Shown: one piece after another, positions 36,006 to 63,356 of the stretch
Position numbering within the stretch: the first letter of the stretch is position 1
Layout of the letters: every line of letters starts with the position of its first letter
Translations under genes and position numbers: made by a program
Notes under the pieces: generated by a model
Told to the model about the DNA's origin: nothing
What the model saw: only the letters and a program-made list of their open reading frames with translations
Databases searched by the model: none
Source: an uncultured Actinomycetota bacterium
GTDB lineage: Bacteria; Actinomycetota; Actinomycetes; Actinomycetales; Dermatophilaceae
Reading direction: 5' to 3'
Assembly (NCBI GenBank): GCA_963747405.1
Contig: CAVVFG010000011.1
Coordinates: 5,018-69,017 of the forward strand
DNA length: 64,000 nt

Positions 36006-36015
36006 ACCGGGGGAC

Positions 36016-36096: not shown

Positions 36097-36174
36097 GCGG
36101 GGACGCTGGGTGGCGGCTGCCGCAACCCTGGGCGGCCGGCATCCGGGAGGGTGGGGTGACCTAGGCTTCGCGGC

Positions 36175-38199: not shown

Positions 38200-38601
38200 G
38201 TGTCAGACACCCCGCCACGCGGCTCGCGGCGCGTTGCCGCTCTGCTCAGTGGCCTGCAGGCGCTCACCCTTGCCGGCTTCGCGGTGTACTACGTCGTCGA
38301 GCTCGCCCTGGGGGAGGGGAGCGACGCCGTCCGAGTGGTGATGTCGGCGCTGTTGATCCTGGTCGGGGCGGTGGGGCTCGGCCTCCTGGCCCGTGGCTGG
38401 CTCGGTGACGCGTCATGGCCGCGCACCCCGACCATCGTCTGGAACGCGATCCTCGTGCCGGTCGGCATCAGCCTGGTCCAGGGCACCCGGGTGACGGTCG
38501 GCTGGGCCGTGCTCGCCGTGGCCGTCGTGGGTATCGGCGCTGCCTGGGTGGCCCGGGACTCCGAGACCGAGGTGCTCCCGGGGCGCGACGTTCCCGACTG
38601 A
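38200..38601 (+). CDS. Small integral membrane protein
   Basis: Four hydrophobic segments and a W(P/A)RTPTIVWN motif. Divergent from whiB1. Confidence 0.7.
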   Translation: MSDTPPRGSRRVAALLSGLQALTLAGFAVYYVVELALGEGSDAVRVVMSALLILVGAVGLGLLARGWLGDASWPRTPTIVWNAILVPVGISLVQGTRVTVGWAVLAVAVVGIGAAWVARDSETEVLPGRDVPD

Positions 38602-42780: not shown

Positions 42781-42819
42781 GGCGCCACCGTAGGAAGACC
42801 GACCGACGACGCCTCGAAG

Positions 42820-42830: not shown

Positions 42831-42925
42831 CCCGGCGCCAGCAGATGCGCGCGGGGGTGACGTCGGGTTTGCTATGCCGAGACATCGGTGGTCGGCGGAG
42901 GGGTCCGGCCACAGGAGGGGGAGAC

Positions 42926-45024: not shown

Positions 45025-45953
45025 GCGGGCTGGCCCGCAGCGGAGCGCTGCTCGGCTTCGTGATGGGGCTGGGCCTGGCGCTGGTCTGGCTGGGCCTGCC
45101 GCTCCACCGGCGGGCCGGGCTGGCCGGGCGCGTGCTGCCCTACCTGCGTGACACCCCCAGGCCGTCCCGGCTGCTCGACGACCCATGCCCCGCCGGCGGA
45201 GCGCTCGGCGTGGTTGCCGGCCCCGTGATCCGAGACCTCGGCGCCGTCGTCGAGCGGGTCATGGGCGGGGCCGACTCCGTGCGCCGGCGCCAGCTGCGCG
45301 CCGGGCTGGCGGCCGACGTCGACCGGTTCCGTGCCGAGCAGGTGCTCTGGGGAGCTCTCGGCGCCGTCGTCGGAGGTGCCGCCGGAGTCCTGGCACTGGT
45401 ACTTCGCGAGGCCGGCGTCGTCACCGTCGTGATGCTCACTGCGATCGGCCTGGGCGTCGGAGTCACGGGCGCCGACTACCTCCTCTCCCGTCGCGCGGCT
45501 CGCCGCGAGGCGCGGATGCTCACCGAGTTCCCCACCGTCGCCGAGCTGCTCGCCCTGGCGGTCGGCGCCGGTGAGGGAGCGGTCGGGGCCCTCGACCGGG
45601 TCTGCCGGCTCTCGCACGGCGAGCTGGCCGGTGAGCTGCGGCGGTGCTTGGCCGACGCCCGCGCCGGGGCCAATCTGCCGACCGCACTGCAGGGACTGGC
45701 CGACCGTACCGGCCTGGCCAGCCTGCGCCGGTTCGTCGACGGTGTCGTCATCGCCGTGCAGCGCGGCACCCCCCTCGCCGACGTCCTGCGGGCCCAGGCC
45801 CAGGACGTCCGCGAGGAGGGGCGCCGATCACTGATGGAGGCCGGCGGCCGCAAGGAGATCGCCATGATGGTCCCGGTCGTCTTCCTGATCCTCCCGGTGA
45901 CGGTGCTCTTTGCCGTCTTCCCCGGGTTCACCTTCTTCCGCTTCACTCTCTGA
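45021..45953 (+). CDS. tadC: TadC (T2SS F family)
   Basis: EFPTVAELLALAVGAGE, RGTPLADVLRAQA, MMVPVVFLILP. Confidence 0.9.
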   Translation: MSGLARSGALLGFVMGLGLALVWLGLPLHRRAGLAGRVLPYLRDTPRPSRLLDDPCPAGGALGVVAGPVIRDLGAVVERVMGGADSVRRRQLRAGLAADVDRFRAEQVLWGALGAVVGGAAGVLALVLREAGVVTVVMLTAIGLGVGVTGADYLLSRRAARREARMLTEFPTVAELLALAVGAGEGAVGALDRVCRLSHGELAGELRRCLADARAGANLPTALQGLADRTGLASLRRFVDGVVIAVQRGTPLADVLRAQAQDVREEGRRSLMEAGGRKEIAMMVPVVFLILPVTVLFAVFPGFTFFRFTL

Positions 45954-45970
45954 CCAGGAAGGACCGACCG

Positions 45971-46180
45971 ATGTCGATCATCCGCACCCTGCCCCTGCGA
46001 GCGCACCTGCTCGCCGACCGCCAGCTCGCCAGGGCCGCCCGACGCGCCGAGCGGGGTGACGTGCCCGGCTGGGTGCTCATCACCTTGATGACGGCCGGGC
46101 TCGTCACCGCCTTGTGGGTCGTCGCGAAGGGCCAGCTCGTCGCCATGTTCCAAAGCGCCCTGTCGTCGGTGAAGGGCTGA
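45971..46180 (+). CDS. flp: Flp-like major pilin
   Basis: 69 aa. ERG|DVPGWVLITLMTAGLV cleavage/hydrophobic pattern, located after tadC. Confidence 0.75.
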   Translation: MSIIRTLPLRAHLLADRQLARAARRAERGDVPGWVLITLMTAGLVTALWVVAKGQLVAMFQSALSSVKG

Positions 46181-46189
46181 TCCCGCCCG

Positions 46190-46573
46190 ATGCGGTGGGC
46201 GCGGGACGAGCGGGGCGCAGCCGTCGCGGACTTCACGATGGTGTCCGTGCTGGTCGTCGCGGTGTTCCTCGCCGTCTTCCAGCTCGGGCTCGCGCTGCAC
46301 ACCCGCAACACGCTCATCTCCTGTGCCTCCGAGGGGGCACGGCTGGGAGCACGGGCGGATGCCGTTGCGGGGCAGGGTGTGTCACGTACCCAGTCCCTGA
46401 TCAGTGCGTCGCTCTCGTCGCGCTACGCGCGCCAGGTCAGCAGCCGCCAGACGGTCGTCGAGGGCGTGCGGGTCATCGAGGTCCGAGTGGTCGCCCCCGT
46501 CCCGGTGATCGGGCTGCTCGGGCCGGAGGACCGGCTCGACGTGGTCGGGCGGGCCTTCTTGGAGGCGCAGTGA
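46190..46573 (+). CDS. tadE: TadE-like minor pilin
   Basis: DERGAAVADFTMVS...ASEGARLGA. Confidence 0.85.
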   Translation: MRWARDERGAAVADFTMVSVLVVAVFLAVFQLGLALHTRNTLISCASEGARLGARADAVAGQGVSRTQSLISASLSSRYARQVSSRQTVVEGVRVIEVRVVAPVPVIGLLGPEDRLDVVGRAFLEAQ

Positions 46574-47016
46574 CCCGGCCCCGGCCCGCGCCGCTCGACG
46601 AGGGTGGCAGCGCCGTCGTCGAGTTCGTCGTGCTCGGCGTGCTGTTGCTCATCCCCCTCGTCTACCTCGTCCTGACGCTGGCGCGGGTGCAGGCCGGGTC
46701 GTATGCCGTCAGCCAGGCGGCGCGCGAGGCGGGCCGTGCCTTCGTCACCGCCGAGACGGACGGCAATGCGACGGCCCGAGCACAGGCCGCCGCACGACTC
46801 GCCTTCGCCGACCACGCGTTCGAGGACTCCGGCCGCGTGACCATCGCCTGTGACGCAACCCCGTGCCTTCGCCCGGACGGCCGGGTCGTCACCGCCGCGA
46901 CGGTTCGCGTGCCGTTGCCGCTGGTGCCGTCCTTCGTCCGCCACGTCATCCCGATGGCGGTGCCGGTGAGCGCGAGCCACCTGTCGACGGTCGACCGGTT
47001 CCGAGGGCTCGGGTGA
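46570..47016 (+). CDS. TadE/TadF-like minor pilin
   Basis: DEGGSAVVEFVVLG...QAAREAGRA. Confidence 0.82.
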   Translation: MTRPRPAPLDEGGSAVVEFVVLGVLLLIPLVYLVLTLARVQAGSYAVSQAAREAGRAFVTAETDGNATARAQAAARLAFADHAFEDSGRVTIACDATPCLRPDGRVVTAATVRVPLPLVPSFVRHVIPMAVPVSASHLSTVDRFRGLG

Positions 47017-47486
47017 CCAGCCGCAGCGGCGAGCGTGGCCGCTCGAGGCAGGACGAGACCGGCTCGATCAGCCTGTTCATCCTCGGGCTGTCACTGGTCG
47101 CGATGCTGCTCATCGCCGGGGCCGTGGCCGTCACCTCCGCGCACCTGTCACGCATGCGGTTGCTCGACGTCGCCGACGGTGCCGCGCTGAGCGCGGCGAA
47201 CGCCCTCGACGACGCGGCCTACGCGCAGGGCGTGGGGGAGTCGGTGCCGCTGAGCAACGCCTCGGTGCAGGAGCGCGCAGCCGCCTACCTCGGTGCCCGT
47301 CCCCGACCGGGCAGCATCTCGCGGTGGCGGCTCGCGCCGGGCACCGGTACCCCTGACGGCCGGACCGCGGTGGTCGTGGTCGTCGGCGAGGCGCAGCTTC
47401 CGATGGTCGGCACGGCGCTGCGTGAGCTGGGGGTCAGCCTGACGATCCGCGTCGAGTCCAGGGCACGTTCCGACCTCGCCGGCTGA
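47013..47486 (+). CDS. TadG-like minor pilin
   Basis: DETGSISLFILG...LLDVADGAALSAA. Confidence 0.8.
   Translation: MTSRSGERGRSRQDETGSISLFILGLSLVAMLLIAGAVAVTSAHLSRMRLLDVADGAALSAANALDDAAYAQGVGESVPLSNASVQERAAAYLGARPRPGSISRWRLAPGTGTPDGRTAVVVVVGEAQLPMVGTALRELGVSLTIRVESRARSDLAG

Positions 47487-48184: not shown

Positions 48185-48185
<1 letters not shown>
47517..48185 (-). CDS. BldC/MerR-like HTH regulator with C-terminal all-helical domain
   Basis: WLGVNEASAMLGVSPATLRRW...GKI...TPGGHRRY. TGATG-coupled to the decaheme gene. Confidence 0.85.
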
Positions 48186-49977
<1,792 letters not shown>

Positions 49978-50819: not shown

Positions 50820-51752
50820 TCAGGTGTAGCTGTGCAGCCCGCCGAAGAAGGCGTTGCCGACGAAGGTCAGCACGACGCTCGCGAAGCCGATGACGAGCAG
50901 CCAGGCGGCGCGGCGGCCGGTCCAGCCGCGGGCGACGCGGGCGTGCAGGAAGCCGCCGTAGATCAGCCAGGTGACGAGCGAGGCGGTCTCCTTGGGGTCC
51001 CAGCTCCAGTAGCTGCCCCAGGCGATCTCGGCCCAGACGGCGCCGAGCACGAGCACCATGGTGTCGAGCGGGAAGCCGATGACGACGGCGCGGTAGCCGA
51101 GCCGGTCGAGCACCTCGTCCTTGGGCACCAGGTGCTTCCAGCGCTGCGGGGTCCACAGCGTGAGGGCGGCTGCTGCGAAGGAGATCGCGAAGGCGCCGTA
51201 GGCGAAGATCGCCACGATGATGTGGATGGTGAGCAGCAGGCTGTTCTGCAGGGCCGGCACCAGCGGGTCGACCTGGGTGTTCTGGGCGCCGGCGTAGAGC
51301 AGGGCGAGCACCGTCATCGGGAGGATGAACAGGGCCAGCGTGCGGGCGTGGTAGCGCCACTCGAAGTAGCAGTAGGCGGCGAGCATGCCCCAGGCCAGCG
51401 ACGTCGCGAACTCGTACTGGGTGACGAACGGGCCGTGGCCGGTGGCCGCCATCCGCAGGCCGAGGGCCGCCGTGAGGAAGCCGAGGGCGATCCAGGTCAG
51501 GCGCGTCCCGTAGCGGGCCAGGGTCGTCGCCGACACGGCGGTGTCCCGGGCCACGATGTCCTGCTGCGCGGCTGCGGAGACCGAGTCGACGTCGTCGAAC
51601 AGGTCCTCACCGGATGCCGTGACGAGCACCTTTCGCCGCGAGGCGCCGGCGGCCGCCCGGTGACCCGCGCTCATGGCCCACGCGTAGGCGATGGTCGCGA
51701 GGACCGTGGAGATCAGTGCCGCGACGAACGCGAACTGGGAGTAGGTGATCAT
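50820..51752 (-). CDS. ccsA: Cytochrome c synthase CcsA (ResC)
   Basis: WWD domain WAEIAWGSYWSWDPKET; His ligands in GHGPF, TIHII and FLHAR. Confidence 0.95.
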   Translation of the reverse strand: MITYSQFAFVAALISTVLATIAYAWAMSAGHRAAAGASRRKVLVTASGEDLFDDVDSVSAAAQQDIVARDTAVSATTLARYGTRLTWIALGFLTAALGLRMAATGHGPFVTQYEFATSLAWGMLAAYCYFEWRYHARTLALFILPMTVLALLYAGAQNTQVDPLVPALQNSLLLTIHIIVAIFAYGAFAISFAAAALTLWTPQRWKHLVPKDEVLDRLGYRAVVIGFPLDTMVLVLGAVWAEIAWGSYWSWDPKETASLVTWLIYGGFLHARVARGWTGRRAAWLLVIGFASVVLTFVGNAFFGGLHSYT

Positions 51753-51757
51753 GCCTG

Positions 51758-53269
51758 TCACTCCTTCGAGGGCTGGCCGACAGGGGCGTCAGGCCGTGTG
51801 ATGGTGGACACCAGGTCCGAGAACACCGGCTCGAAGCCGGGGTCACGCTTGAGGGGGGCGCCGAGCCGCACGCTGGCGGTGCCGTCGGCGGTGTCGCGTA
51901 CCCGCACCCACAGGCGGCGGTGCGGCATGAAGAACACCAGGTAGCAGCCCAGGATCAGCAGCGCCGCACCCAGGCCCACGACCCACGAGCCGCTGTCCTG
52001 CTTGACGGTCAGCCCGGTGTACTGGCGGTTGCGCTCGTAGGTGTAGGTGAGACCGTCGACGACGGCGGACTGACCCTGGCTGACCACCGGCGTGCCGAGG
52101 GGGGTGTCGACCCCGTCCTTGTGCACCTCGAGCTGCGCCGAGCCGGCGGGCAGGTCGGCCAGCACCTGGCCGGACGCGGCCTCGACGACGTAGACGGTGA
52201 TGCCGCGGTCGGGGATGGTCAGCTGCCCGATGCTCTGCTGCCCGTCGTCGGACTGCCACTGCAGCGGGACCAGCCCGGAGTAGACCTTGGTGTCGCCGTC
52301 GCTGACGGTGACGTCGGCGCCGTTGCCGAAGGACGACTGGTGGAACCACGTGCCGTCGTAGATGAGCGGCGAGTTCACCCGGGTCTCGTGGCGCGCGACC
52401 TGCTTGCCGTCCTGGGTCAGCACCAGGTCGGACACGTAGTCCTTGGGGGCCCCGTTGTCGTAGTAGGAGTCGGTGAAGCTCTTGGCCTCCACCGTCAGGC
52501 CGGTGCCGTGGCCCACGCTGACCGGCACGCCGACCGGCGCGATGAAGCTCTTGTCGCGAAAGCCCGTGCTGGCGCTGACGACGAAGCCGAGCATGACGAC
52601 GATGAGGCTGAGGTGGGCGATGACGGTGCCGAAGGGGCCCCAGCGGAAGCGGTCGGCGTACAGCGCTGTGCCGGTGGCGGCCTGGGCGTCGATGATGCGG
52701 AAGTGCTTGGCGCGCAGGGCTGCCCGCACGTGCTCGGTTGCCGCTGCGCTGTCCATGGGCAGGTCGACGGTGGCCCGCAGCGGCGCGTGGTCGTAGAAGA
52801 CCTCGCTCATCGTGGTGCGTGGCTTGGTCGCCACTCGCCACAGCCGGGGGGCCCGGTTGACCGAGCAGGCCAGGATGCTCAGGCTCAGCAGGGCGAACAG
52901 GCCCATGAAGTACCAGGTCGAGAAGACGTGGAACAGGCCGAGCTTGTCGAGGATGCCGGCCCACCCGCCGTAGCGCTGGGTCGGCGTGCCGGCGAGCCAC
53001 TGCTGGTACGCGGCCGGGTCGGCCCGCACCTCCGGCTCCACCTGCATGAGCAGGGTGCCGAGGAGGGTCAGCACGCCGAGGGTGAGGATGATCCACAGCC
53101 CGGTGCGCATCGAGATGAGGAAGAGCCAGATCTTGCGCAGCGGGTGGGCGTGGTGGTGGCCGTGGCCGTCCTGCTCACTCCCGTCCAGGACGTCGACGCC
53201 GTGCTCGTGGTCGACGTGTCCGGGCACGTGCGAGGTGATGTCCTCGCGGCCCCTCACGGTGGTCGTCAT
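51758..53269 (-). CDS. resB: Cytochrome c biogenesis protein ResB/CcsB
   Basis: FLISMRTGL, VFSTWYF, GTVIAHLSL, VNSPLIYDG..FHQSSF, YTGLTVKQDSG. His-rich N-tail. Confidence 0.92.
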   Translation of the reverse strand: MTTTVRGREDITSHVPGHVDHEHGVDVLDGSEQDGHGHHHAHPLRKIWLFLISMRTGLWIILTLGVLTLLGTLLMQVEPEVRADPAAYQQWLAGTPTQRYGGWAGILDKLGLFHVFSTWYFMGLFALLSLSILACSVNRAPRLWRVATKPRTTMSEVFYDHAPLRATVDLPMDSAAATEHVRAALRAKHFRIIDAQAATGTALYADRFRWGPFGTVIAHLSLIVVMLGFVVSASTGFRDKSFIAPVGVPVSVGHGTGLTVEAKSFTDSYYDNGAPKDYVSDLVLTQDGKQVARHETRVNSPLIYDGTWFHQSSFGNGADVTVSDGDTKVYSGLVPLQWQSDDGQQSIGQLTIPDRGITVYVVEAASGQVLADLPAGSAQLEVHKDGVDTPLGTPVVSQGQSAVVDGLTYTYERNRQYTGLTVKQDSGSWVVGLGAALLILGCYLVFFMPHRRLWVRVRDTADGTASVRLGAPLKRDPGFEPVFSDLVSTITRPDAPVGQPSKE

Positions 53270-53282
53270 CGCGATGCCTCTT

Positions 53283-54026
53283 TCAGACGGGGATGGTCGG
53301 GAAGAACTGGGAGAGCCGCATGAGCAGGTTCGTGATCATCAGGAAGCCGACGGCGACGAGCATGGAGCCGGTGGCCAGGGAGACGACGGCGTCGTGCCGG
53401 GCGAACCAGCTGAGGCGCTGGCGCAGGCTGTCCGCGCCGAGTGCCACGAGGATGAAGGGGATGCCGAGCCCGAGCGCGTAGGCGAGGAGCAGCACCGTCC
53501 CCTGGGCGAGGTCCGAGCGCAGCGACGCCAGGCCGATGATCCCGCTGAGGATCGGGCCGATGCAAGGCGTCCACCCGGCCGCGAACACCACCCCGAACAG
53601 CGCCGAGCGGCCCACGCGCGGCGCCTGCTCGATCACGGTGCCGTCGGCGTGGCGCTGCACGAGCCGGCCCATGTTGGCCCCGGCGCCGGCCTGGCGACCC
53701 AGGACCGGGAGCGAGATCAGGCCCGCGACGTGCAGGCCCATCACCACCAGGATGGCGCCGCCGACCTGGCGCAGCAGGCCGACGTGGTCGCGCAGCGCGT
53801 AGCCGACCAGCCCGATGGAGGCCCACAGCGCCACGAACACGACGGTGAAGCCGATGACGAAGGCCAGGGCCTGCCGGAAGGCGACACTGCGGGTGGGCCG
53901 GCCCGTGTCGTTGGTGCCGCCGACGATGAAACCGACGTAGACCGGCACCAGCGGCAGGCAGCACGGCGACGCGAACGACACCAGACCCGCGGCGAAGGCC
54001 ACCGCCAGGGTGATGTTCCCGTTCAT
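53283..54026 (-). CDS. ccdA: Cytochrome c biogenesis protein CcdA
   Basis: SFASPCCLPLVP and GWTPCIGPIL redox cysteine motifs. Confidence 0.94.
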   Translation of the reverse strand: MNGNITLAVAFAAGLVSFASPCCLPLVPVYVGFIVGGTNDTGRPTRSVAFRQALAFVIGFTVVFVALWASIGLVGYALRDHVGLLRQVGGAILVVMGLHVAGLISLPVLGRQAGAGANMGRLVQRHADGTVIEQAPRVGRSALFGVVFAAGWTPCIGPILSGIIGLASLRSDLAQGTVLLLAYALGLGIPFILVALGADSLRQRLSWFARHDAVVSLATGSMLVAVGFLMITNLLMRLSQFFPTIPV

Positions 54027-54065: not shown

Positions 54066-54955
54066 TCACTTGGCGGGCGTCGGCGCTGAGCTGGAGACGG
54101 ACCCGACCTGGGACTGCACGGTCTTGGCGAGCTCGCTGTTCGGGTCGATCGCCACGACCTTGGCCCACTCGGTCTTCATCTCCGCGTTGCGGCCGGTCGT
54201 CATGTAGAGGAAGCCCAGGTCGTAGTGCATCTCGGCGTTCTTCGGGTAGGCCTTGATGCCGGTCTTCCAGGCCTGCTCCGCGGCGGCGGTGTCGCCACCG
54301 TTGTAGGAGGCGGCCCCGAGGCTGATCAGGCCCTGCTCGTTCTTGGGGTCGACGGCCAGCACCTTCTGGGCAGAGGCCTTGGCGCTGGTCCAGTCGTTGG
54401 CGGTGAAGTACAGGTCGGTGATCTTCTGCAGCGACGCGACGTCCTTCGGGTCGGCCTTGACCTTCGCGGTCAGCGCGGCCAGCTGGGCCTGGTCGATCGT
54501 GGGCGCCGCGCTGGGGGCGGCGGCCGAGCTGGCGGTGGCGGCGGAGGTGACGTCCGGCACGGTGGGGCGGCCCATCCAGTAGACGCCGAACACGACTGCG
54601 ACCGTCGCGAGGACGGCGATGATGCCGATCAGGACGCGGTTGGTCGAGCCGCCCGCCGGCGCGGGGGCCGGTGCCACGACGGTGGCCGGAGCCGCCGCTC
54701 GGGAGGGGGGACGAGCTGGGACTCGGGACCTGTCAGCAGGGAGAAGATGCGGTCCGCCTCCTGCTGGCGGCGGTCCGCCCATCCGCGGATCTCGCTGGGC
54801 GCCTGGTCGAGGAAGTCACCGATCCGGTCGTACGTCGTCTCGACCTCCTGGTCGTCCGCGGCGGCGTCGAGCCCGAACCGGGCAAGCAGTCCGTCTCTCG
54901 TCACGACCGCGTCGGACGTGGTTCCCGTGGCGGTCGCTTCCCGTACTGGGGACAT
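54066..54955 (-). pseudogene. Membrane-anchored TPR protein (CycH/NrfG-like) split by a 1-nt deletion (may be an assembly error)
   Basis: The 5' part (ATG 54955, GAGGAG RBS) and the TM+TPR part are in different frames. Adding one base to the G6 run at 54705-54710 gives a continuous 891-nt ORF. Confidence 0.7.
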
Positions 54956-55034: not shown

Positions 55035-55065
55035 CTATCCGCCTAGGGGCACATATCCGATAGAG
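55035..55065. promoter_or_regulatory. Island operator-like motif, copy A
   Basis: CTATCCGCCTAGGGGCACATATCCGATAGAG, 24/31 identical to 61352-61382. Lies 80 nt upstream of the maturation operon start. Confidence 0.6.
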
Positions 55066-57740
55066 GTGACCGGGGCGGGGGTGCTGTACGTCGCCTGCTG
55101 GTGGTCCTTGCCGTGGCACGTGAGGGTGCACGAGGCGCCGGTCGCCGTCTTGGTGAAGGTGGGCACCCCGCCCATCGACCGGCTCGGCAGGACGTTCGGG
55201 CCGAAGACGACCAGGCGGTCGCCGGACAGCTTCTGGGTGGTCGGCGGCTTCGTCGTGCCGTGGTCGTCGAAGTGGCACTCCGCGCAGCGGGCGTTGCCCT
55301 GCCCGGCCCCGGGGGTGTCGATGTCGAGCCCGCCGCTGCCGGCGTCGGAGATCCCGGACGTGTGCAGGCCGTGGAACACGAAGTTCGTGCCCTCCGCCGC
55401 CGCGGGGCGCCGCTGGTTCATGAAGGGCGTCTCCATGTGGCAGGTGAGGCACAGCGCGAAGCCCGCGTTGTCGTAGAACCGCCCGGATGCCGAGAGCACG
55501 CGGTTCTCGTAGGGGCGAGTGAGGATTCCGCGGTTGGTGGAGGCGTGCACGGTGCTGGTGGCGTCGGGCGCGTTGCGGGCAGGGTCGGTCGACGTGCCGG
55601 TGGTGTTGCTCGAGTGGCAGCTGACGCAGCGCACGGTGTCGCCGGTGCTGAAGTTCCACAGCTTGTAGGGGGAGGTACCGGCGAGGCTGTCCGCCAGCTT
55701 CTGCGTCTGGTTCTTCCCGGGGGCCTCGATCGGGTGGTATGAGGCGTTCGCCGGGTTGAGCGCCACGGCGAGGTCGGTGGCGCTCTGCGACGGCTTGCCG
55801 GGCACGTCCGCCGGCTGAGAGGTGAAGCCGGAGTGGCACTTGAAGCAGAGCTGGTACTCCGCGGTGACCGGTGCGACGGTGCCGTCCAGCCAGGTGTAGC
55901 CGGGGGCTGTCCCGGCCGCCCCGTTGGTGACCGCGACGCCGGAGACGTTGACCAGTGAGCCCGGGGGCGTCCAGCCCGTGGCGGTCATGGTCGGGGGCGT
56001 GTCGGTCGAGCCGTGCGGGTTGTGGCAGTCGCTGCACTGGCTGTGCCGGTCGAGCCGGCCCTCGAACTCGTTCTCGGCGTCGAGCGTGTGGCCGGTGGCG
56101 TCCGCCGTGTCGTGCGACCAGTACGAGCGCGTCGTGGGGTCGTTCGCGGGCTGGCCGAGGGTGTACTGCGCCTTCACGTCAGCGGCATCGCCGACTGCGC
56201 CGCCCGCGTGGCAGGCGTAGCACTGCTCGGTGATCGACGGCGCCTTGACCAGCGCACCGGCCTTCGCCGTGTGTGCCTGGTGGCACACGCTGCACTGTCC
56301 GCTCGTCGTCGAGGAGTAGGGGTCGTGGATCGTCGCGGGACCGTTCGGCCCGACCGGTCCGACCGTCACGACGTACGACGGGCCGGCGGTGGCGACCTCG
56401 GTCAGCATGGCCTGCGCCGTGGTGTCGGGCACGAAGGCGGCAGCCATCGTGGCGACGAGGTCGGTGGCCGCAGCGGCAGCGGCCGGCGCGGCATCCGCGA
56501 CGTCGGTGGTGCTCGTGCTCGTGAGGTTTGCGGTGACGGGGACGGTGGTGCCGCCCCTCGCGGGCTGCGAGACCAGGCGGTAGGCGGGCGGCGCAGAGCC
56601 GGCCGCGGTGGTGGCGCGGGCCGGGGCGCTGCCGCTGGGGGATCCCTGCTTCTGACCCGGGCTCTGGAGCACCGGCGGTGGGTCGGCGACCGTCACGCTC
56701 ACCGTGTCCGCTCCGGGGATCGCGGCGCCGCCGTCGGTGACCCTCAGGTCGTAGGTCGCGCCGTACGGCGCGTCGATCGAGAAGGCAGCGGTGAACTCCT
56801 GCTCGGTCACGGTGCCGGCCAGCACGGTGTACCGGGGCGCGGCCTGGACCCCACTGAGCCGGTGTCCCTCGGCCTGGGCCGCCCCGTCGGGCGCGGCGAG
56901 CCGCGCCTCGTCGGGCGTGGTGGTGGTGTTCTCGGGTGCGGTTCGGGTGCCGCCGTTGGCCTTCACCCACTCCTCCGCCGCGTGCAACGGGATGGCGGGC
57001 ACCGCCTCGTCGGGCACCACCTGGAAGGTGTTCGCGCCGGCTACCCGGTACTCGAGCCGGGGCGCCACTGCCACGTCGCCGGGGCCGCCGTTGCCGAGCT
57101 GCAGCACGATGCGGAAGGTCTGGAAGGGGAGCAGGCCGGTGAGGGGCTGTCCGGCAGGCAGGTAGGTCGGCGTGGTGCCTGGAGCACCGAGGGTGGCCAG
57201 CGCCGCCGGCCCGCCGAACAGCCCTGGTGTGATGCTGGCCGGTGCGCTGGACGGCGTCGGTGACGGCGTGGGAGCCGGTGCTGCCGCCGAGGCGGAGGGC
57301 GCCGGGACAGGGCTCGCGGCCGACGGAGTGGACGAGGGTGTGGGGAGCGGGGACGGGGTGCTGCTGCCGTCGGCGGTGGCGCCCGGGGCCGGTGTGGGGG
57401 CCGGCGTCGGTACGGGGGTGGTCTGGATGCCGGCGCTGCCCGGGGTGGGGGTCGCGCTGCTCGACGGTGTGGTCACGTCGGTGACGGCGACCCGCTGGAC
57501 CGCGGCCTGCTGGGTGGCGGCCCGCTGGGTGGCGGCCCGCCGCGCCGCGGAAGCGCTCGCCGTGCGGGGGGTGGACGTGGGGGCTGCCACGGTCGGTGCC
57601 GGGCCGGCCGACTGCAGGCCCACGGTCTGCACGACGGCGATGGTCGACGCGGTGAGGAGCACCGCGGCGGCGGCGAGGACGTGGGCCGGCCGGACGTCGA
57701 ACCGCGCGGTGCGCGGTGTCCTGCGGCGCTCCTGCGTCAT
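55035..57740 (-). CDS. Stalked octaheme cytochrome c (7 CxxCH + 1 CxxxCH)
   Basis: N-terminal signal/TM, P/T/S/A-rich linker and beta-rich domain, then CSVCH, CYACH, CSDCH, CFKCH, CVSCH, CLTCH, CAECH, CTLTCH. Confidence 0.88.
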   Translation of the reverse strand: MTQERRRTPRTARFDVRPAHVLAAAAVLLTASTIAVVQTVGLQSAGPAPTVAAPTSTPRTASASAARRAATQRAATQQAAVQRVAVTDVTTPSSSATPTPGSAGIQTTPVPTPAPTPAPGATADGSSTPSPLPTPSSTPSAASPVPAPSASAAAPAPTPSPTPSSAPASITPGLFGGPAALATLGAPGTTPTYLPAGQPLTGLLPFQTFRIVLQLGNGGPGDVAVAPRLEYRVAGANTFQVVPDEAVPAIPLHAAEEWVKANGGTRTAPENTTTTPDEARLAAPDGAAQAEGHRLSGVQAAPRYTVLAGTVTEQEFTAAFSIDAPYGATYDLRVTDGGAAIPGADTVSVTVADPPPVLQSPGQKQGSPSGSAPARATTAAGSAPPAYRLVSQPARGGTTVPVTANLTSTSTTDVADAAPAAAAAATDLVATMAAAFVPDTTAQAMLTEVATAGPSYVVTVGPVGPNGPATIHDPYSSTTSGQCSVCHQAHTAKAGALVKAPSITEQCYACHAGGAVGDAADVKAQYTLGQPANDPTTRSYWSHDTADATGHTLDAENEFEGRLDRHSQCSDCHNPHGSTDTPPTMTATGWTPPGSLVNVSGVAVTNGAAGTAPGYTWLDGTVAPVTAEYQLCFKCHSGFTSQPADVPGKPSQSATDLAVALNPANASYHPIEAPGKNQTQKLADSLAGTSPYKLWNFSTGDTVRCVSCHSSNTTGTSTDPARNAPDATSTVHASTNRGILTRPYENRVLSASGRFYDNAGFALCLTCHMETPFMNQRRPAAAEGTNFVFHGLHTSGISDAGSGGLDIDTPGAGQGNARCAECHFDDHGTTKPPTTQKLSGDRLVVFGPNVLPSRSMGGVPTFTKTATGASCTLTCHGKDHQQATYSTPAPVTSIGYVPLGG

Positions 57741-57785
57741 CGTCGGTGCTCCAGTCGCTCGTCGTTCGTTCGTCGTCCGGAGCCA

Positions 57786-57812
57786 CAGGCGGCCTGGGTG
57801 AGAGGCCGCCTG
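57786..57812 (-). terminator. Perfect 10-bp stem-loop between the hexaheme and octaheme genes
   Basis: CAGGCGGCCT (57786-57795), 7-nt loop, AGGCCGCCTG (57803-57812). No U-tract. Confidence 0.55.
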
Positions 57813-57853
57813 CAGCTCACAGACGGGTCTGGCTCGGTGTGGTGTCCGCCGGG

Positions 57854-59044
57854 TCAGACGTTGTGGCACATCACGCAGGTACCGCGGTCGTCCACACGGA
57901 GCAGACGGCTGTCGGAGCTGGTGCCGGTGCCGTTGGGCCACTCGACCTTCGAGTTCGGCATCTGGGCGTTCGTGCCGTGTGCTACGTGGCACTGGATGCA
58001 GTTGCGGTTTGCCGAGGCGTCGCCGCTGACCTGGTCGCCGGTGTGCCGGTACGAGAAGACGGCGTCACCGGAGTTCTTGCCCCACGACCCGGACGGTGCC
58101 AGGTACCGCGTGTGGCACGTGGTGCACCACGCGGCGACATTCGCCTGGAACGAGCTGACGGTCGCGGAGATCGTCTTCTGAACCGGGGTCGGGTCGGTGG
58201 TGGAGGTTCCTCCGAGGATGGTCGTCGTGCCCGTGTCGGCCACGGCGTTGGGGTCGCCGGCGATCCAGTAGTTGGTCGTCGTGTAGACCTTGTTCGCCGT
58301 GTCCTTGATGACGATCCCGGGCGTGGTGTTGCCCGGAAGGGTCGCCGTGAACCCCGAGTCGGACGGCACAGCCCGCAGGATGCGGTACTGCCCGTTGCCG
58401 TGCGGGTCGTGGCAGGCCGTGCACTCGAGCTTGGTGTTCGTCGTCGTGCTCATGTCCTTGCCGGCGTTCGCCGTGCCGGAGATGGGCCCGTTGCCCCACA
58501 TGATGCCCACGCCACCGAGGTGGTTGGACGTCGTGTCCTGCGGGGTGGCGGCGGGTGGGACCAGCTGGTTGCGGGACCGGTAGTTCGTACCGCTGAGGTA
58601 GATCTCCTTGGTCGCCGTACCCGTCCCGAGTGCTGCCTTCTCGAAGCCGCCACCCCGCAGGGCGCCGGCCACTGTGGTGCCACGGTCGACGGTCAGGGTG
58701 GTTCCGTCGGGGTACGTCGTCGTCGATGCGGCGTCGTAACCCAACCCACTCTGTACGTCGGTCGTTGCACCGGTTCCACCGTCACCGTGGCACGAGTAGC
58801 ACAGGCTTTCCTCGCTCGTGGCGTTGAGCAGGTAAGCCGCGCGAGCCGTGTGGGCCCGGTGGCACGAGGCGCAACGCCCCTGGCCGGCATCGGTGATCTT
58901 GACACCGCTGGTCGGCGTGTTCGTGGCGGTGGACACGTGTGGGCCGTTGTCGGCGTAGGCCGGCACCGCCCCGAGGAAGAACGCGGCCGCGGCCGTCGCG
59001 CCAAGCGCTACCAGCCTCGTCCGTACCTTCTTGTGCGTTCTCAT
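57854..59044 (-). CDS. Secreted hexaheme cytochrome c, OmcS/CwcA-like (putative nanowire subunit)
   Basis: Sec signal ending AYA|D; CASCHRAH, CYSCH, LECTACHDPH-YRIL, WCTTCH, CIQCHVAH, terminal CVMCHNV. Confidence 0.85.
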   Translation of the reverse strand: MRTHKKVRTRLVALGATAAAAFFLGAVPAYADNGPHVSTATNTPTSGVKITDAGQGRCASCHRAHTARAAYLLNATSEESLCYSCHGDGGTGATTDVQSGLGYDAASTTTYPDGTTLTVDRGTTVAGALRGGGFEKAALGTGTATKEIYLSGTNYRSRNQLVPPAATPQDTTSNHLGGVGIMWGNGPISGTANAGKDMSTTTNTKLECTACHDPHGNGQYRILRAVPSDSGFTATLPGNTTPGIVIKDTANKVYTTTNYWIAGDPNAVADTGTTTILGGTSTTDPTPVQKTISATVSSFQANVAAWCTTCHTRYLAPSGSWGKNSGDAVFSYRHTGDQVSGDASANRNCIQCHVAHGTNAQMPNSKVEWPNGTGTSSDSRLLRVDDRGTCVMCHNV

Positions 59045-59089
59045 TGTCGCGTTCCAATCTGAGCTGTGAAGTTGTGTACTCCTGTTGTT

Positions 59090-59187: not shown

Positions 59188-60261
59188 TCAGTACCCCCAC
59201 ACCTCGATGCGGTTGTTCTCCCGGTCGGCGACGTAGACGCGACCACGGGTGTCCGCGGCAACGCCGTTGGGGAAGGTGAACTTGCCGTCGTCGTGCCCCT
59301 CGTCGCCGAAGGAGGCGACGTAGCCGGGGTGGTCCGTCGGCGAGGAGCCGAGCGTGAACAGCCGCACCATGTGGTCGGTGGTGTCGGCCACGAACATCCG
59401 GCCCTGGTCGTCGACCGCGAGGCCGCGGGGCAGGCCCAGGTCGCCGTCGCCGACGCCACGGGCGATGAGGGTCGACACCGTGCCGGCCCGGTCGATGGAG
59501 ACGACGCGACCGTTGTTGCTGTCGCTGACGTAGATGCCGCCGTCCGGCCTGACGACGATGGCGTTGGGGTAGTTGAGCTCGCCCTTGCCGAGCACGCTGC
59601 GCAGCGTGCCGTCGTGGGCGAACACCAGGATCCGGTGGTCGGCGGGCTTGGCGCTGAGCACGTCGGCGACGTAGACGGTGCCGTCGGGGCCGACCGCCAG
59701 GCCCAGGGGCGAGATGGTGCCGACGCCCTTGCCCTTCGGCTGGAAGGTGGAGAGGTAGGTGCCGGTCTCGTCGTAGACGTACACCTTGCCGGCTGCGCGG
59801 TCGCCGACGTAGACGTCGGCGTTGGTGGGGTCGACCGCGACGTAGACGGGCACGTGCAGCGTCTTGGGTGTGGCCGGGGGCAGCAGCTCGCCGACCTTGA
59901 CGCCGTCGCGGTCGAAGATGAACGTCGTCGGGGTGGCGCCGGACTGCGTCGCGTAGATCCGCTCCCCGTCGGGCGAGACGGCGACGCCGAGCGGGCGGAC
60001 GACGTCGTAGACCGACGTCTTGTAGGTGGGGGCGTGCGCGTCGCTGAGCCCGGGCAGCTCGGTGAGCGGCTTGCGGTTCAGCAGGTACCAGGTGAACAGG
60101 CCCACGAGGAGCACGAGCAGGGCGAACACGACGGCGAGGATGATGCGGCGGCGCTTGCGGCGGCCCTCGTCGACGGGCGGCACCGGGGCCGGCGGGGTGG
60201 GGGGCTCGGAGAGGTCGTCGAGCAGGTCGAGCAGGTCGGTGCTGGACTGGGTCTCACTCAT
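59188..60261 (-). CDS. Membrane-anchored NHL-repeat beta-propeller protein
   Basis: TM after RRKRRR; repeats PLGVAVSPDG, PVYVAVD, PLGLAVGPDG, PNAIVV, PRGLAVD, PNGVAAD. Confidence 0.9.
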   Translation of the reverse strand: MSETQSSTDLLDLLDDLSEPPTPPAPVPPVDEGRRKRRRIILAVVFALLVLLVGLFTWYLLNRKPLTELPGLSDAHAPTYKTSVYDVVRPLGVAVSPDGERIYATQSGATPTTFIFDRDGVKVGELLPPATPKTLHVPVYVAVDPTNADVYVGDRAAGKVYVYDETGTYLSTFQPKGKGVGTISPLGLAVGPDGTVYVADVLSAKPADHRILVFAHDGTLRSVLGKGELNYPNAIVVRPDGGIYVSDSNNGRVVSIDRAGTVSTLIARGVGDGDLGLPRGLAVDDQGRMFVADTTDHMVRLFTLGSSPTDHPGYVASFGDEGHDDGKFTFPNGVAADTRGRVYVADRENNRIEVWGY

Positions 60262-60273
60262 CGCAGGTCACCC

Positions 60274-61254
60274 TCACTTCTTCTTCGCCGTGGCCGGTGG
60301 TGCGAGGGGCTTGACGCCGATGGCTGCCAGCGCGCTGATGGCGGCGATGTTCTTGGGGTCCTTGGCCAGCGCCTTCTGGTACCAGGTGCCGGCGGCCTTG
60401 GTGTCGTGGCCGGTCTCGGCGATGAGTCCGAGCCCGAGCATCGCGTCGGCGGCGGCGGGGCCTGCGGTGAGAGCGGTGAGCTGGGTGCGGGCCTGGTCGA
60501 CCTTTCCGCTGCAGAAGCCGCCCATCGCCGAGGAGTAGCTCGCGAGCTCGGGCTTCTTCAGCGCGGCGTAGGCGGCCTGCATCTGCTGGTAGGGCTCGCA
60601 CCAGCCGGTCGGCACGAAGCGCAGGGCGTCGCGGAAGGTCGCGACCGCCTCGGCGTTCGCGCCCTTCTGCATCTGGGCCAGGCCCACCTGGTACATGGCG
60701 TCGGAGTCGGTCGGCTCGATCTTCAGCGCGTGGCCGAGCTGGCCGAGTGCGACGTCCGACTTGTTCTGCTTCACCGCGATGCTGCCCAGGTAGTAGTACG
60801 CCGCAGCGAGCTGGGAGTCGGCGCCGGCGAACTCACCCTTGCGGGTGGCCGTGACGATCTGGGTGAGGGATGCGGTGGCCTGGTCGAGCTGGCCCTTCGT
60901 CATCAGGGCGAAGCCCTTGCCGAGCAGCGCGTCCTTGTTGCCGGGGGCGGCCTTGAGCACCTGGTCGAACTGCTTGACCGCGTCGTCGTAGCGCGCGGCC
61001 TGCTCGTACACCTCGCCCAGCTGGAGCCGGGCCTGCAGGTCGTCGGGGTTCTTGCGCACTGCTGCCTCGGTGAGCGCGACCTGCCGCTCGACGATGGAGG
61101 GCGCGGCGGTCACGTGCTGGTCCTTGTAGTACAGGAGCCCGAAGGCGACCAGCCCGACGGCGAGGGCCGCGGCCCCGATACGCAGGAGCACGGCCATCGT
61201 GCGGTCGGACGGATCCGCCGCCGTGAGCCGGTGGGGGCTCATCGTGTGTGCCAT
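60274..61254 (-). CDS. Membrane-anchored TPR protein
   Basis: N-terminal TM; TPR signatures (ARLQLGEVYEQAARYDDA, ALLGKGFAL, AMYQVGLAQ). GAGGT RBS. Confidence 0.88.
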   Translation of the reverse strand: MAHTMSPHRLTAADPSDRTMAVLLRIGAAALAVGLVAFGLLYYKDQHVTAAPSIVERQVALTEAAVRKNPDDLQARLQLGEVYEQAARYDDAVKQFDQVLKAAPGNKDALLGKGFALMTKGQLDQATASLTQIVTATRKGEFAGADSQLAAAYYYLGSIAVKQNKSDVALGQLGHALKIEPTDSDAMYQVGLAQMQKGANAEAVATFRDALRFVPTGWCEPYQQMQAAYAALKKPELASYSSAMGGFCSGKVDQARTQLTALTAGPAAADAMLGLGLIAETGHDTKAAGTWYQKALAKDPKNIAAISALAAIGVKPLAPPATAKKK

Positions 61255-61351
61255 AGGTACCTCACCCGTTCCTTTGGCGGTGTGGCGGCATCCCTGCCGT
61301 CGGAGGACGGACCTCCTCCACGTCCATCGTGGGTGGGCGGGCCGGTGAGGC

Positions 61352-61382
61352 CTATCCGCCGCAGGGTAGATATCGGGTAGAG
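61352..61382. promoter_or_regulatory. Island operator-like motif, copy B
   Basis: CTATCCGCCGCAGGGTAGATATCGGGTAGAG in the divergent gap between the TPR gene and the kinase gene. Confidence 0.6.
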
Positions 61383-61562
61383 CCCTGGCCGCGACCCCCT
61401 CGCCGGGCACACCGGCTCGACGGGCGGGCGCGACATCGGCACCACTACACTGCGTCGTGGACAGCGCCCGGAAGGCGCCGGCAAAGGAGCGGACCGATCA
61501 ACACCAGTGGAGTGACCGGCTCGGGAGGCGCCGAGAGCGCGCACTCCCGCTCTGCCGCCACC

Positions 61563-63356
61563 ATGGCGGAGCGCCCTGGCCCCGATCCGGTCGTCGGTCC
61601 CGCTCCGCGTACCCGGCTGGTCGACCGCCGGCTGTGGGCGATCGGCATCCTGGTTCCCGTCGGGTTCGCGATCGGGCTCGAGCTGGTCCGCTGGCAGCTC
61701 GAGCAGCAGGGCGTCTGGTCGCCGGGCGTCTTCGAGATCTGGCACATCGCCGGCCTGGCCGTGGTCGTGGTCGGCATCGTGCTGTTCGCGTTGTTCATGT
61801 TCCGGCTCATCGACCAGATCGACCGGCAGGTCGTCCGCCAGAACCGCGACCTCACCGCGGCGAACGCCGTGGCGGGGGCCATCCAGGGCCAGGCGACGGT
61901 GCCGGCCATCGTCGACAGTGCCCTGACCTCGCTGCTGCGCACCTCGGGGGCCCGCCAGGCCCGCATCCGCTTCCCGGAGCCGGTCGGGTTGCCCGACAGG
62001 GACACCCACGCCCGCACGCTCACCGTTTCCGGCGCCCGGGTCGACACCGGCAGCCCCTCGCTCGAGGTGCCCATGGCACACGGTTCTGGCGTCGTCGGAC
62101 GGCTGGCTCTGTGGTACCCGGCGGGTGCCGATGTCGCCGACCGCATCGGCGGCGCCGCGCTGTCCAGCCTGACCACCCAGATCGCATGCGCCATCCAGCT
62201 GGCCGGCGCAGTGGGCGACCTGGAACGGCGCAAGCTGGAAGGACACGCCTTCTACGACATCCTCCTGCGCGTCTCGAACCAGGAGCCGACCACGCCGGTG
62301 CTCGAGGCGGTCGTTCGACATGCGGCTGCACTGCTCGGTGCGGATGCCGCCGTCGTCACGGTGTCGCCGGAGACGACCCGCACGATCCGGTTCGATTCGG
62401 GGTCGGGGGCACAGGCGCCGGCGCAGCGGCCCGACGGCGCCACCGTCGTGTCCTTCGGGCTGCCCGTCGCGCCGCCGCCGGGCGGCGGCCAGGCCACGGC
62501 CGCCGCCGACGACCGCGAGTGGGCGCACACCGCGAGCCGCGACGTCACCGGCGGGGCCGGCCACCTCGGCGAGCTGTGGGTGGCCCGCACCACTGGGGCC
62601 GAGTTCACCGACCGCGACCGCGGTTTCCTCGGCACCCTGGCGAGCCTGGCCGGCATCGCGCTGTCCGGGGCCCAGATGCGCGAGGGCGCGCGGCAGCGCG
62701 CCGTGCTCAGCGAGCGCACCCGGATCGCGCGTGAGATGCACGACAGCCTGGCCCAGGTGCTCGGGGCAGTGCACCTGCGGCTGCGGGCCCTCGAGACCGG
62801 CGTCGGAACCCTGACCGACGACGCGGTGGTGGCCGAGGTGGAGGCGCTCGCGGACGTGTGCGCCGAGGCCTACCGCGATGTGCGCGAGACCATCCTCGGG
62901 CTGCGTGACGCAAACCGGCACGCCGAACGCAGCCTCGAGGACAACCTGCGGTCCTACCTCGAGGCCTACTCCACCCAGAGCGGCATCGGCGCCCGGCTGG
63001 ACAACGAGGTCGGCCACGAGGTGGCGCTCTCGCCGAGGGCCGAGGTGCACATCATCCGGATCGTCCAGGAGGCGCTGACCAACGTGCGCAAGCACGCGGG
63101 CGCCCGCTCGGTGGTCGTCAGCATCCGCGGCGACGACACCACGACGTGCTTCGTCGTCGCCGACGACGGCGTCGGCTTCGACACCGAGGCGACGGCCGGC
63201 TCGCAGGACGGCTACGGCCTGTTCACCATGCGCGACCGGGCGGCACTGCTGGGCGGTACGGTGCAGGTCCACTCCGCACCCGGGGCCGGAACCACCGTGA
63301 CGGCCAGCGTGCCCGAGCGGCCCCATCCCTCCTTCACCACGAGGCCCACCGGATGA
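61563..63356 (+). CDS. Sensor histidine kinase (2 TM, GAF-like domains, HisKA_3, HATPase)
   Basis: ERTRIAREMHDSLAQ, RIVQEALTNVRKHA, DDGVGF, GYGLFTMRDRA. Confidence 0.92.
   Translation: MAERPGPDPVVGPAPRTRLVDRRLWAIGILVPVGFAIGLELVRWQLEQQGVWSPGVFEIWHIAGLAVVVVGIVLFALFMFRLIDQIDRQVVRQNRDLTAANAVAGAIQGQATVPAIVDSALTSLLRTSGARQARIRFPEPVGLPDRDTHARTLTVSGARVDTGSPSLEVPMAHGSGVVGRLALWYPAGADVADRIGGAALSSLTTQIACAIQLAGAVGDLERRKLEGHAFYDILLRVSNQEPTTPVLEAVVRHAAALLGADAAVVTVSPETTRTIRFDSGSGAQAPAQRPDGATVVSFGLPVAPPPGGGQATAAADDREWAHTASRDVTGGAGHLGELWVARTTGAEFTDRDRGFLGTLASLAGIALSGAQMREGARQRAVLSERTRIAREMHDSLAQVLGAVHLRLRALETGVGTLTDDAVVAEVEALADVCAEAYRDVRETILGLRDANRHAERSLEDNLRSYLEAYSTQSGIGARLDNEVGHEVALSPRAEVHIIRIVQEALTNVRKHAGARSVVVSIRGDDTTTCFVVADDGVGFDTEATAGSQDGYGLFTMRDRAALLGGTVQVHSAPGAGTTVTASVPERPHPSFTTRPTG

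Follow-up and report, generated by a model that had tools for sequence, protein, structure and literature searches.

A conserved octaheme-hexaheme cytochrome pair in Actinomycetota and Chloroflexota as a candidate electron conduit through the cell wall

To our knowledge, extracellular electron transfer across the thick envelopes of monoderm-type bacteria is understood only in a few thermophilic Firmicutes. In the Thermincola pathway, electrons pass from ImdcA to PdcA, on to CwcA in the wall and from there to the surface cytochrome OcwA; CwcA, a six-heme protein, is proposed to lie in the peptidoglycan, and a polymer model of it was based on OmcS (PMC7911101). Gram-positive multiheme clusters repeatedly include NHL and TPR genes (PMC10376724), and multiheme cytochromes were long considered rare in Actinobacteria (PMC7399161). 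Here, we analyzed a 64,000-nucleotide stretch of DNA (the window) from an uncultured Actinomycetota bacterium of the Dermatophilaceae (contig CAVVFG010000011.1) and followed up one of its genes, which encodes an eight-heme cytochrome that we call the octaheme. The gene lies in a co-directional cluster of about 13 kb with the order TPR, NHL, hexaheme, octaheme, TPR, CcdA, ResB, CcsA, thioredoxin, and 10-heme NapC/NrfH-like protein (Table 1). The cluster is a complete kit, with a quinol dehydrogenase, two cytochromes, maturation proteins, anchored scaffold or chaperone proteins, and a regulator. With moderate confidence, we propose that the octaheme is the low-copy, wall-reaching interface cytochrome of an extracytoplasmic electron transfer module of Actinomycetota and Chloroflexota, which most likely takes respiratory electrons through the cell wall.

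The overall logic of the Thermincola chain matches that of this cluster. Both combine a monoderm envelope with a membrane-anchored quinol-side cytochrome of about 10 hemes, a hexaheme proposed to lie in the wall, and a larger cytochrome, which here would also be at the outer face. The cluster would be a counterpart in other phyla made of unrelated proteins. OcwA, a surface nonaheme with an NrfA/OTR-like core, has no detectable sequence or fold likeness to the octaheme, which in turn has a CX3CH motif, an immunoglobulin (Ig)-like domain, and Pro/Thr (PT)-rich linkers. The cluster differs further in having no PdcA-like soluble decaheme and in being one compact unit with its own maturation, NHL, and TPR genes; the hexaheme was compared with CwcA by description only. 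On the quinol side, the NrfH-like protein resembles ImcH, CymA, and NrfH in its NapC/NirT N-terminal domain (PF03264, 44.3 bits against a cutoff of 24.1), its single transmembrane (TM) segment (amino acids [aa] 107 to 125 of the query), and its extra hemes. It is unlike them in having ten CxxCH motifs; none of its motifs is CX3CH, and a doubled-CXXCH domain is also present. Intrasporangium calvum and Anaerolinea thermophila have been reported to encode an ImcH homolog with one TM segment (PMC6295460), which may be an ortholog of the NrfH-like gene product of the cluster. This passing mention was all that we found in the literature on the cluster in Actinobacteria or Chloroflexi.

We asked how regularly the octaheme occurs with these neighbors. 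Relatives were present in at least 539 species genomes in a scan of one genome per species, and the best 80 loci (L001 to L080) were almost all from Actinomycetota or Chloroflexota. Sixty-two of these 80 had at least 5 kb of upstream sequence and could be tested on that side. The hexaheme was directly upstream of the octaheme in 56 of the 62, and NHL and TPR genes were each upstream in 59. Downstream, we found the TPR gene at 51 of 58 loci, CcdA at 48 and ResB at 49 of 58, and the NrfH-like gene at 48 of 55. By tblastn, the cytochrome c maturation genes were conserved at 34 to 94% identity. A search that started from two distant hexaheme homologs led to two more loci (L081 and L082) with the same cluster and an octaheme of 805 to 816 aa. 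In all 15 loci that we inspected, the two cytochromes were separate open reading frames (ORFs), with 6 hemes and 7+1 hemes. An earlier note on this DNA, made from the sequence alone, had tied the two proteins together, and the survey of homologs for a missing hexaheme neighbor did not refute this pairing. These data strongly support a genuine conserved octaheme-hexaheme pair.

Some loci depart from this arrangement. The octaheme was kept with NHL and TPR genes but without the hexaheme in 3 of the 62 loci, and two Myxococcota outliers had an octaheme with none of the cluster context. In two Chloroflexia loci (L024, 8081 to 11107; L051, 8210 to 11227), two tandem six-heme paralogs stand upstream of the octaheme. 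Two Nanopelagicales-like loci (L036 and L038) encode an octaheme without the Ig-like domain and a longer hexaheme ORF of 512 to 575 codons from stop to stop. One apparent hexaheme-octaheme fusion, P0181 (685 aa, Ig-like domain plus hexaheme), was rejected, since its sequence reads through several frameshifts in an assembly that is prone to errors.

The spacer between the two cytochrome genes contains a hairpin. In the window, the 113 nucleotides (nt) that follow the hexaheme stop codon had a minimum free energy (MFE) of −52 kcal/mol (z = −4.2), and the core stem consists of 16 consecutive GC-rich pairs. We scanned 100 nt per region at a threshold of ≤−28 kcal/mol. Of 63 loci, 73% had such a hairpin behind the hexaheme stop, compared with 3% of random windows from the same loci; the values were 0% after ResB, 2 to 8% after TPR, CcdA, octaheme, and NHL, and 19% after CcsA. 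Its sequence varies between lineages and the pairing is preserved by covariation. Rfam gave nothing significant for the hairpin, the best match being a Streptomyces small RNA at 25.9 bits (gathering score, 52). The structure is a putative terminator or attenuator or a putative mRNA-stabilizing 3′ structure.

Metatranscriptomes of relatives showed the same asymmetry between the two genes. Sequence words of the hexaheme were found in at least 22 metatranscriptomes from freshwater sediment, peat, soil, and ice, and no octaheme words were found in the metatranscriptomes searched, although the octaheme gene is 2.3-fold longer. Contigs of four runs (peat, soil, and freshwater) were then aligned with the cluster at ≥80% identity, and their depth was 10 to 150 for the hexaheme and 0.5 to 3.8 for the octaheme, a ratio of roughly 8 to 40. 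In a fifth run, from sediment, the coverage comprised the hexaheme and the spacer and ended just past the hairpin. The NHL, CcdA, and ResB genes are as conserved as the hexaheme, yet their RNA depth was low. Thus, conservation is not the cause of the contrast in depth. Together, the hairpin and the RNA ratio point to a bulk/minor stoichiometry, as would be expected if the octaheme were an anchor, cap, or adaptor: the hexaheme is the bulk product and the octaheme the minor product. Most simply, the hairpin would terminate or stabilize most transcripts ahead of the octaheme gene.

Two soil metatranscriptome contigs from different studies (X23 and X27) end exactly one base past the hexaheme stop (57853) and run into Illumina adapter. 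In relatives, the RNA or cDNA thus seems to have a sharp end at this point, which may be a 3′ terminus or a place where reverse transcription stopped at a hairpin. A sigma-70-like site at 59043 to 59070 was rejected as a promoter, since the hexaheme ATG falls within it and RNA contigs reach farther upstream.

We then examined the octaheme itself. The ATG at 57740 has a GGAG 9 nt upstream, the stop codon occupies 55035 to 55037, and the 901-aa product is identical to a database protein of the same length (P0001). The closest relatives are in Ornithinibacter, Intrasporangium, and metagenome-assembled genomes (MAGs) of Actinomycetales; the window has a G+C content of 70 to 76% and is near-identical to soil metagenome contigs. 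These likenesses suggest a soil actinobacterium similar to Intrasporangiaceae. The ORF, the AlphaFold2 model, and the motifs bore out the order of parts given in the earlier note, namely, an N-terminal hydrophobic segment, a linker, a beta-rich domain, a second linker, and a heme domain. Its count of eight heme motifs was also right, with one of them atypical: seven are CxxCH (aa 483, 507, 569, 632, 705, 764, and 819), and the eighth, at aa 871, is CxxxCH (CTLTCH, hereafter CX3CH). At least 295 homologs span both the beta-sandwich and the heme domain, down to 40% identity. Across 97 homologs, all eight heme motifs were invariant, and so were 11 further His residues outside the motifs and a nonheme loop, D656 to N677, in which H669 of the sequence NPxNxSxHPxE is one of the 11.

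In the same 97 homologs, the Ig-like domain kept its length at about 175 aa, and the heme domain measured 377 to 439 aa. The distance from the N terminus to Y193 ranged from 0 to 397 aa (median, 129), and linker 2 ranged from 47 to 117 aa, the octaheme of the window having the longest. Thus, the N-terminal part and linker 2, which vary freely in length, behave as spacers. Pro, Thr, Ser, and Ala (PTSA) make up a fraction of 0.70 to 0.80 over aa 51 to 200, in agreement with the linker composition that had been noted; the length given for linker 1, about 130 aa, has to be corrected to about 135 to 150 aa. In linker 2, aa 366 to 423 are disordered in the AlphaFold2 model and aa 425 to 451 form two lineage-specific helices.

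Between the linkers, aa 180 to 355 form a beta-sandwich with a predicted local distance difference test score (pLDDT) of 90 to 98. The isolated domain had no Pfam match at E ≤ 5. It was found in only 70 clusters among 1.84 billion representative proteins, and almost all of these belonged to the octaheme family. A Foldseek search with the octaheme model returned weak, generic beta-sandwich matches (Ig/FnIII/CBM-like; best E, 8e-4) and no multiheme protein. By these searches, the sandwich is a family-specific, previously undescribed Ig-like domain. The motif SPGQ(R)QG (aa 360 to 366; window positions 56643 to 56663, minus strand) closes the domain and borders the disordered linker 2. It is near-invariant in both phyla at S360, G362, Q363, and G366 and could be a candidate site for processing, cross-linking, or partner binding.

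The heme domain matched the MtrC/MtrF heme domain model PF22113 at 44.6 to 46.8 bits (cutoff, 30), as well as TIGR01905 at 32.4 bits (cutoff, 25.2) and, over aa 479 to 513, the doubled-CXXCH family PF09699 at 52.6 bits (cutoff, 20.6). The octaheme is like MtrC, OmcA, MtrF, and MtrA in its above-threshold PF22113 match, in the doubled-CXXCH module, which is the repeat unit of MtrA, in combining beta-rich and multiheme parts, and in probably facing the outside. It is unlike the outer cytochromes in having eight hemes instead of ten, no TIGR03507 match, no lipoprotein signal, and no porin partner, and its beta domain is an unrelated Ig-like sandwich on disordered linkers. A search of all Protein Data Bank (PDB) sequences with the octaheme family profile (A1) returned, up to an E of 1, MtrA and one low-complexity match only, with neither OmcZ nor OcwA among them.

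The N terminus has a single hydrophobic 19-mer, aa 19 to 37, with a Kyte-Doolittle (KD) value of 2.1. The segment is more like that of the hexaheme (1.9), which has a canonical cleavage site, than like the true anchors in the NHL, TPR, and thioredoxin neighbors (2.2 to 2.9). In most homologs, the segment is followed by a helix breaker, FGP, and an AXA-like site (e.g., MALA|A, GALA|D, and ASA|E); the cleavage site of the window's own protein is ambiguous. For the family, a cleaved signal peptide is therefore likelier than a permanent membrane stalk. The earlier idea of a stalk that lifts the heme domain through the peptidoglycan survives in its spacer part, given the variable PT-rich linkers, and the AXA sites make its permanent membrane anchor doubtful. 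Candidates for retention of a cleaved protein are the Ig-like domain and possibly the PT region if glycosylated, either of which may hold it in the envelope.

The hexaheme starts with the ATG at 59044 and has a predicted signal cleavage site, AYA|DNGPH. The mature N terminus DNGPH (58939 to 58953, minus strand) was invariant in 60 homologs; the invariant residues are A31, A33, D34, G36, and H38 in the numbering of alignment A3, which is the true numbering +2. There are exactly six conserved non-motif His residues for six hemes, one of them in DNGPH. The AlphaFold model was poor (pLDDT, 57, and <50 at the mature N terminus), and Foldseek found no structural neighbor for it, poor as it is for fold comparison.

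The first heme pair of the octaheme, CSVCHQAH and, after 19 aa, CYACH (aa 483 to 511), resembles that of the hexaheme, with 15 of 29 residues identical by hand count. BLASTP aligned the two proteins at 46% identity over 57 aa (E, 3e-10; 48.9 bits), and hhalign gave a probability of 98.6 over 47 columns only. This likeness coincides with the generic Paired_CXXCH_1 domain (PF09699/TIGR01905), which the NrfH-like protein shares and of which MtrA (6r2q_A) has several copies. The family model scores of the octaheme (52.6 bits) and the hexaheme (65.4 bits) are comparable to the 48.9 bits between the two. Thus, the "shared CxxCHxAH head" of the earlier note is real as a resemblance but, being a generic doubled-CXXCH domain, is no evidence for docking. 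To judge from the alignments, the module reflects common ancestry of the di-heme unit and not a docking surface.

From these observations we infer the following scheme. Menaquinol would be oxidized by the membrane-anchored 10-heme NapC/NrfH-like protein, and electrons would pass to the secreted hexaheme, which, in large excess, would fill or span the wall as a relay population or polymer. Exchange of electrons between the hexaheme and the octaheme would be the next step. The octaheme would be exported by Sec and then located in the envelope, and its hemes would be inserted by the cluster's own CcdA, ResB, CcsA, and thioredoxin, possibly with help from the TPR proteins at the CX3CH site. Its eight closely packed, probably bis-His hemes would form a short wire, which the Ig-like domain and the two PT-rich linkers would position or retain in or beyond the wall. 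There, it would most likely act as the terminal or interface cytochrome, in electron exchange with external acceptors or donors, such as Fe(III), humics, or Fe(II), or with the end of the hexaheme relay. The hairpin would pass only a fraction of the transcripts into the octaheme gene.

Several points weigh against this scheme. Expression was gauged by contig depth in metatranscriptome assemblies of relatives, which is a crude measure, although its direction was consistent. The location of the octaheme in the envelope is read from its sequence; the protein has no lipobox, its first Cys being C483, and neither a sortase motif nor a known wall-binding domain was apparent, which leaves the retention of a cleaved protein unexplained. 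No solved multiheme structure was matched by the octaheme heme domain, either by sequence or by Foldseek; thus, the term "terminal reductase" rests on analogy. The 11 non-motif His residues for eight hemes and the D656-to-N677 loop could mark a catalytic or metal site. We also found no paper that describes the octaheme family or the cluster in Actinobacteria or Chloroflexi.

Abundant hexaheme and minor octaheme fit a wall relay with a tethered terminal cytochrome and a filament with an accessory subunit equally. We therefore considered a refined form of the filament proposed in the earlier note, in which the hexaheme of these soil, peat, and freshwater Actinomycetota and Chloroflexota polymerizes into a wall-spanning or extracellular heme filament and the octaheme is its base, cap, anchor, or nucleator, with the stoichiometry set by the hairpin. 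The N-terminal di-heme module of the octaheme would mimic a hexaheme subunit at one end, and the Ig-like domain and linkers would tie that end to the envelope. Strict gene pairing and major/minor expression through a conserved hairpin, as in pilin operons, agree with this, and the homologous di-heme module extends past the Pfam domain (GxGA..DV; hhalign). OmcS subunits join head to tail with inter-subunit His-heme ligation. Among the six non-motif His residues of the hexaheme, the one in DNGPH is at a position comparable to that of the OmcS inter-subunit His, and the hexaheme is like Geobacter OmcS in being a secreted, highly expressed, six-heme protein of about 400 aa with cytochromes and a beta-propeller adjoining. 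A report that cites Shen et al. 2025 describes the OmcS companion (osc) cluster as a secreted hexaheme beside cytochromes and a beta-propeller-like protein, OscD, to which our NHL propeller is parallel; as described there, osc has no octaheme counterpart (PMC13194489). CwcA has been modeled as such a polymer (PMC7911101). However, our monoderm cluster has no OscEFG or OscH equivalents, and the likeness to OmcS and OmcE is borderline and Cys/His-rich: the hexaheme family profile matched MtrA (doubled CXXCH) first among PDB sequences, then OmcE (E, 6e-4 over 27 aa), and OmcS (6ef8_A) at an E of 2.7e-3 over about 115 aa (profile positions 180 to 295, hemes 3 and 4), and the single hexaheme sequence matched neither OmcS nor OmcE. 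No OmcZ, OcwA, or MtrC was returned in the PDB searches with the hexaheme sequence or with both family profiles. Heme spacing agreed with OmcS at hemes 3 and 4 only, an estimate from approximate OmcS positions. The poor hexaheme model has no structural neighbor, the shared module is generic, and the cleavable-looking signal peptide of most homologs makes a membrane base unlikely. Because the octaheme stands beside NHL and TPR genes but lacks a hexaheme partner in three loci, it is not solely a filament accessory. We consider it possible, though clearly the lesser chance, that the hexaheme polymerizes, and we doubt the complete arrangement with the octaheme at the filament end. Of the original proposal of an anchor or nucleator, the partnership was upheld by synteny and the expression ratio, and no result supported the filament, the membrane anchor, or the docking head.

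The octaheme might instead be an extracytoplasmic enzyme served by the hexaheme as an abundant electron carrier, which we think improbable. One heme, or the D656-to-N677 loop with the surplus His residues, would be the catalytic or metal site, and the candidate substrates, soluble or mineral, would be nitrite, hydroxylamine, sulfur oxyanions, Fe(II), or Mn(II). The 11 invariant His residues and the strong conservation of the loop (NPxNxSxHPxExxGxN) and of SPYKLWNF are in line with this, as are the TPR proteins with NrfG/CcmH-like matches and a related locus (L045) from a Mn-associated Chloroflexi MAG. So is the invariant, atypical CX3CH beside a dedicated maturation system, since dedicated maturation elsewhere accompanies special catalytic hemes, such as the CXXCK heme of NrfA and that of MccA. 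But the octaheme has no sequence or fold likeness to the NrfA, HAO, ONR, OTR, or MccA families, its conserved His residues suffice for bis-His ligation of eight hemes, and long flexible linkers with an Ig-like domain would be unusual for such enzymes; low octaheme expression relative to a supposed carrier fits either model. OmcZ offers a further comparison. It is made as a larger precursor, from which Ig-like domains are removed by a protease. By analogy, the Ig-like domain of the octaheme would be a carrier or inhibitor, and cleavage in linker 2 near SPGQRQG would free the heme domain to self-assemble or diffuse. Both proteins have eight hemes, one of them in a non-CxxCH motif, and a linker-separated Ig-like domain, and in the octaheme the linker is disordered and protease accessible and SPGQ(R)QG is conserved at the domain boundary. 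The domain order is opposite to that of OmcZ, however, there is no sequence likeness to solved OmcZ chains, the conserved cluster has no dedicated protease gene, and a bulk polymer would be at odds with so little transcript. We regard such a pro-protein as very unlikely.

A wall electron conduit with the octaheme at its interface is of a kind already known, as multiheme conduits have been described in monoderm bacteria. What is new is an unrelated octaheme that combines its own type of Ig-like domain and an invariant CX3CH with dedicated maturation and hairpin-linked major/minor expression and that is widespread in two abundant soil phyla. The cluster, with its own maturation system and two-component regulator, occurs in at least 539 species-level genomes, and the hexaheme is visibly transcribed in metatranscriptomes from peat, soil, ice, and freshwater. 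With its constant partner, its low copy number, and a unique Ig-like domain, the octaheme poses a concrete question about how cytochromes are organized in a Gram-positive wall, and the presence of the cluster in cultured Intrasporangium strains makes this question testable. If the electrons go to iron minerals or humics, two abundant soil phyla would join the iron and carbon redox cyclers. If the filament reading were true instead, no earlier cytochrome "nanowire" system would have had a defined accessory subunit, and none would have come from these phyla.

Table 1. Positions of the octaheme parts, the spacer hairpin, and the cluster genes in the window
Feature	Position	Strand	Evidence or remark
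Octaheme cytochrome gene (901 aa + stop)	55035..57740	-	ORF and start; P0001; at least 295 homologs
N-terminal Arg-rich n-region and hydrophobic core, aa 1-45	57606..57740	-	Probably a cleaved Sec signal peptide; signal anchor possible
Linker 1, Pro/Thr/Ser/Ala-rich, low complexity, aa ~46-179	57204..57605	-	PTSA fraction 0.70-0.80
Ig-like beta-sandwich, family-specific, aa 180-365, SPGQ(R)QG at end	56646..57203	-	AlphaFold2, all-beta
Linker 2, aa 366-470, disordered with two lineage-specific helices	56331..56645	-	pLDDT 32-57
Eight-heme C-terminal domain, aa 471-901, doubled-CXXCH module first (aa 479-513)	55038..56330	-	Motifs, PF09699, PF22113
GC-rich hairpin in hexaheme-octaheme spacer, core stem 57804-57812 / 57786-57794	57774..57825	-	MFE, conservation
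Hexaheme cytochrome gene (396 aa), cleavable signal peptide, six CxxCH	57854..59044	-	PF09699 65.4 bits; at least 1524 homologs
NHL-repeat beta-propeller, membrane-anchored	59188..60261	-	PF01436 E 7e-26; TM aa 40-58, KD 2.9
TPR protein, membrane-anchored, start approximate	60274..61254	-	TPR_16 E 3e-26; TPR_CcmH_CycH E 2e-9; TM
Second TPR protein, membrane-anchored, start approximate	54066..54782	-	TPR families; TM
CcdA, System II cytochrome c maturation	53283-54026	-	Pfam of locus homolog (PF02683), synteny
ResB, System II cytochrome c maturation	51758-53269	-	Pfam of locus homolog (PF05140), synteny
CcsA, System II cytochrome c maturation	50820-51761	-	Pfam of locus homolog (PF01578), synteny
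Thioredoxin/ResA-like, System II maturation	49978-~50700	-	AhpC-TSA/Redoxin matches; PF00578 in homologs
10-heme NapC/NirT/NrfH-like quinol dehydrogenase, membrane-anchored, start approximate	48185..49960	-	PF03264, TIGR03153 E 1.5e-15
HisKA_3 kinase with GAF	61329-63356	+	Pfam
NarL/LuxR-type response regulator	63353->63997	+	Pfam

All four components of the System II set (CcdA, ResB, CcsA, and ResA-like) are adjacent; the Pfam labels of the first three were taken from the homologous genes in L081 and L082. Relatives of the response regulator were present in 49 related loci, and in L081 and L082 the cluster is preceded by genes for a histidine kinase and a response regulator. Ahead of its TM helix, the NrfH-like protein has a cytoplasmic N terminus with low-complexity Asp-Gly-Ala repeats (ADGADGADG...; 49650 to 49800, minus strand).

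A Tad/Flp locus (42845 to 47486, plus strand) abuts the cluster on the opposite strand. It encodes a TadA/CpaF-like ATPase and TadE- and TadG-like pseudopilins and is shared with L001, L003, and L044. We rejected this pilus locus as a secretion partner, since it occurs only in the three closest relatives and lies outside the conserved module. Beyond it, at 38413 to 42819 on the minus strand, is a gene for a 1468-aa protein with FHA and FtsK/SpoIIIE ATPase domains, which is EccC/type VII-like or DNA translocase-like. An NAD-specific glutamate dehydrogenase (1639 codons from stop to stop) and then a PdtaS-type GAF histidine kinase, both unrelated to the cluster, are encoded at 31086 to 37653 on the plus strand.

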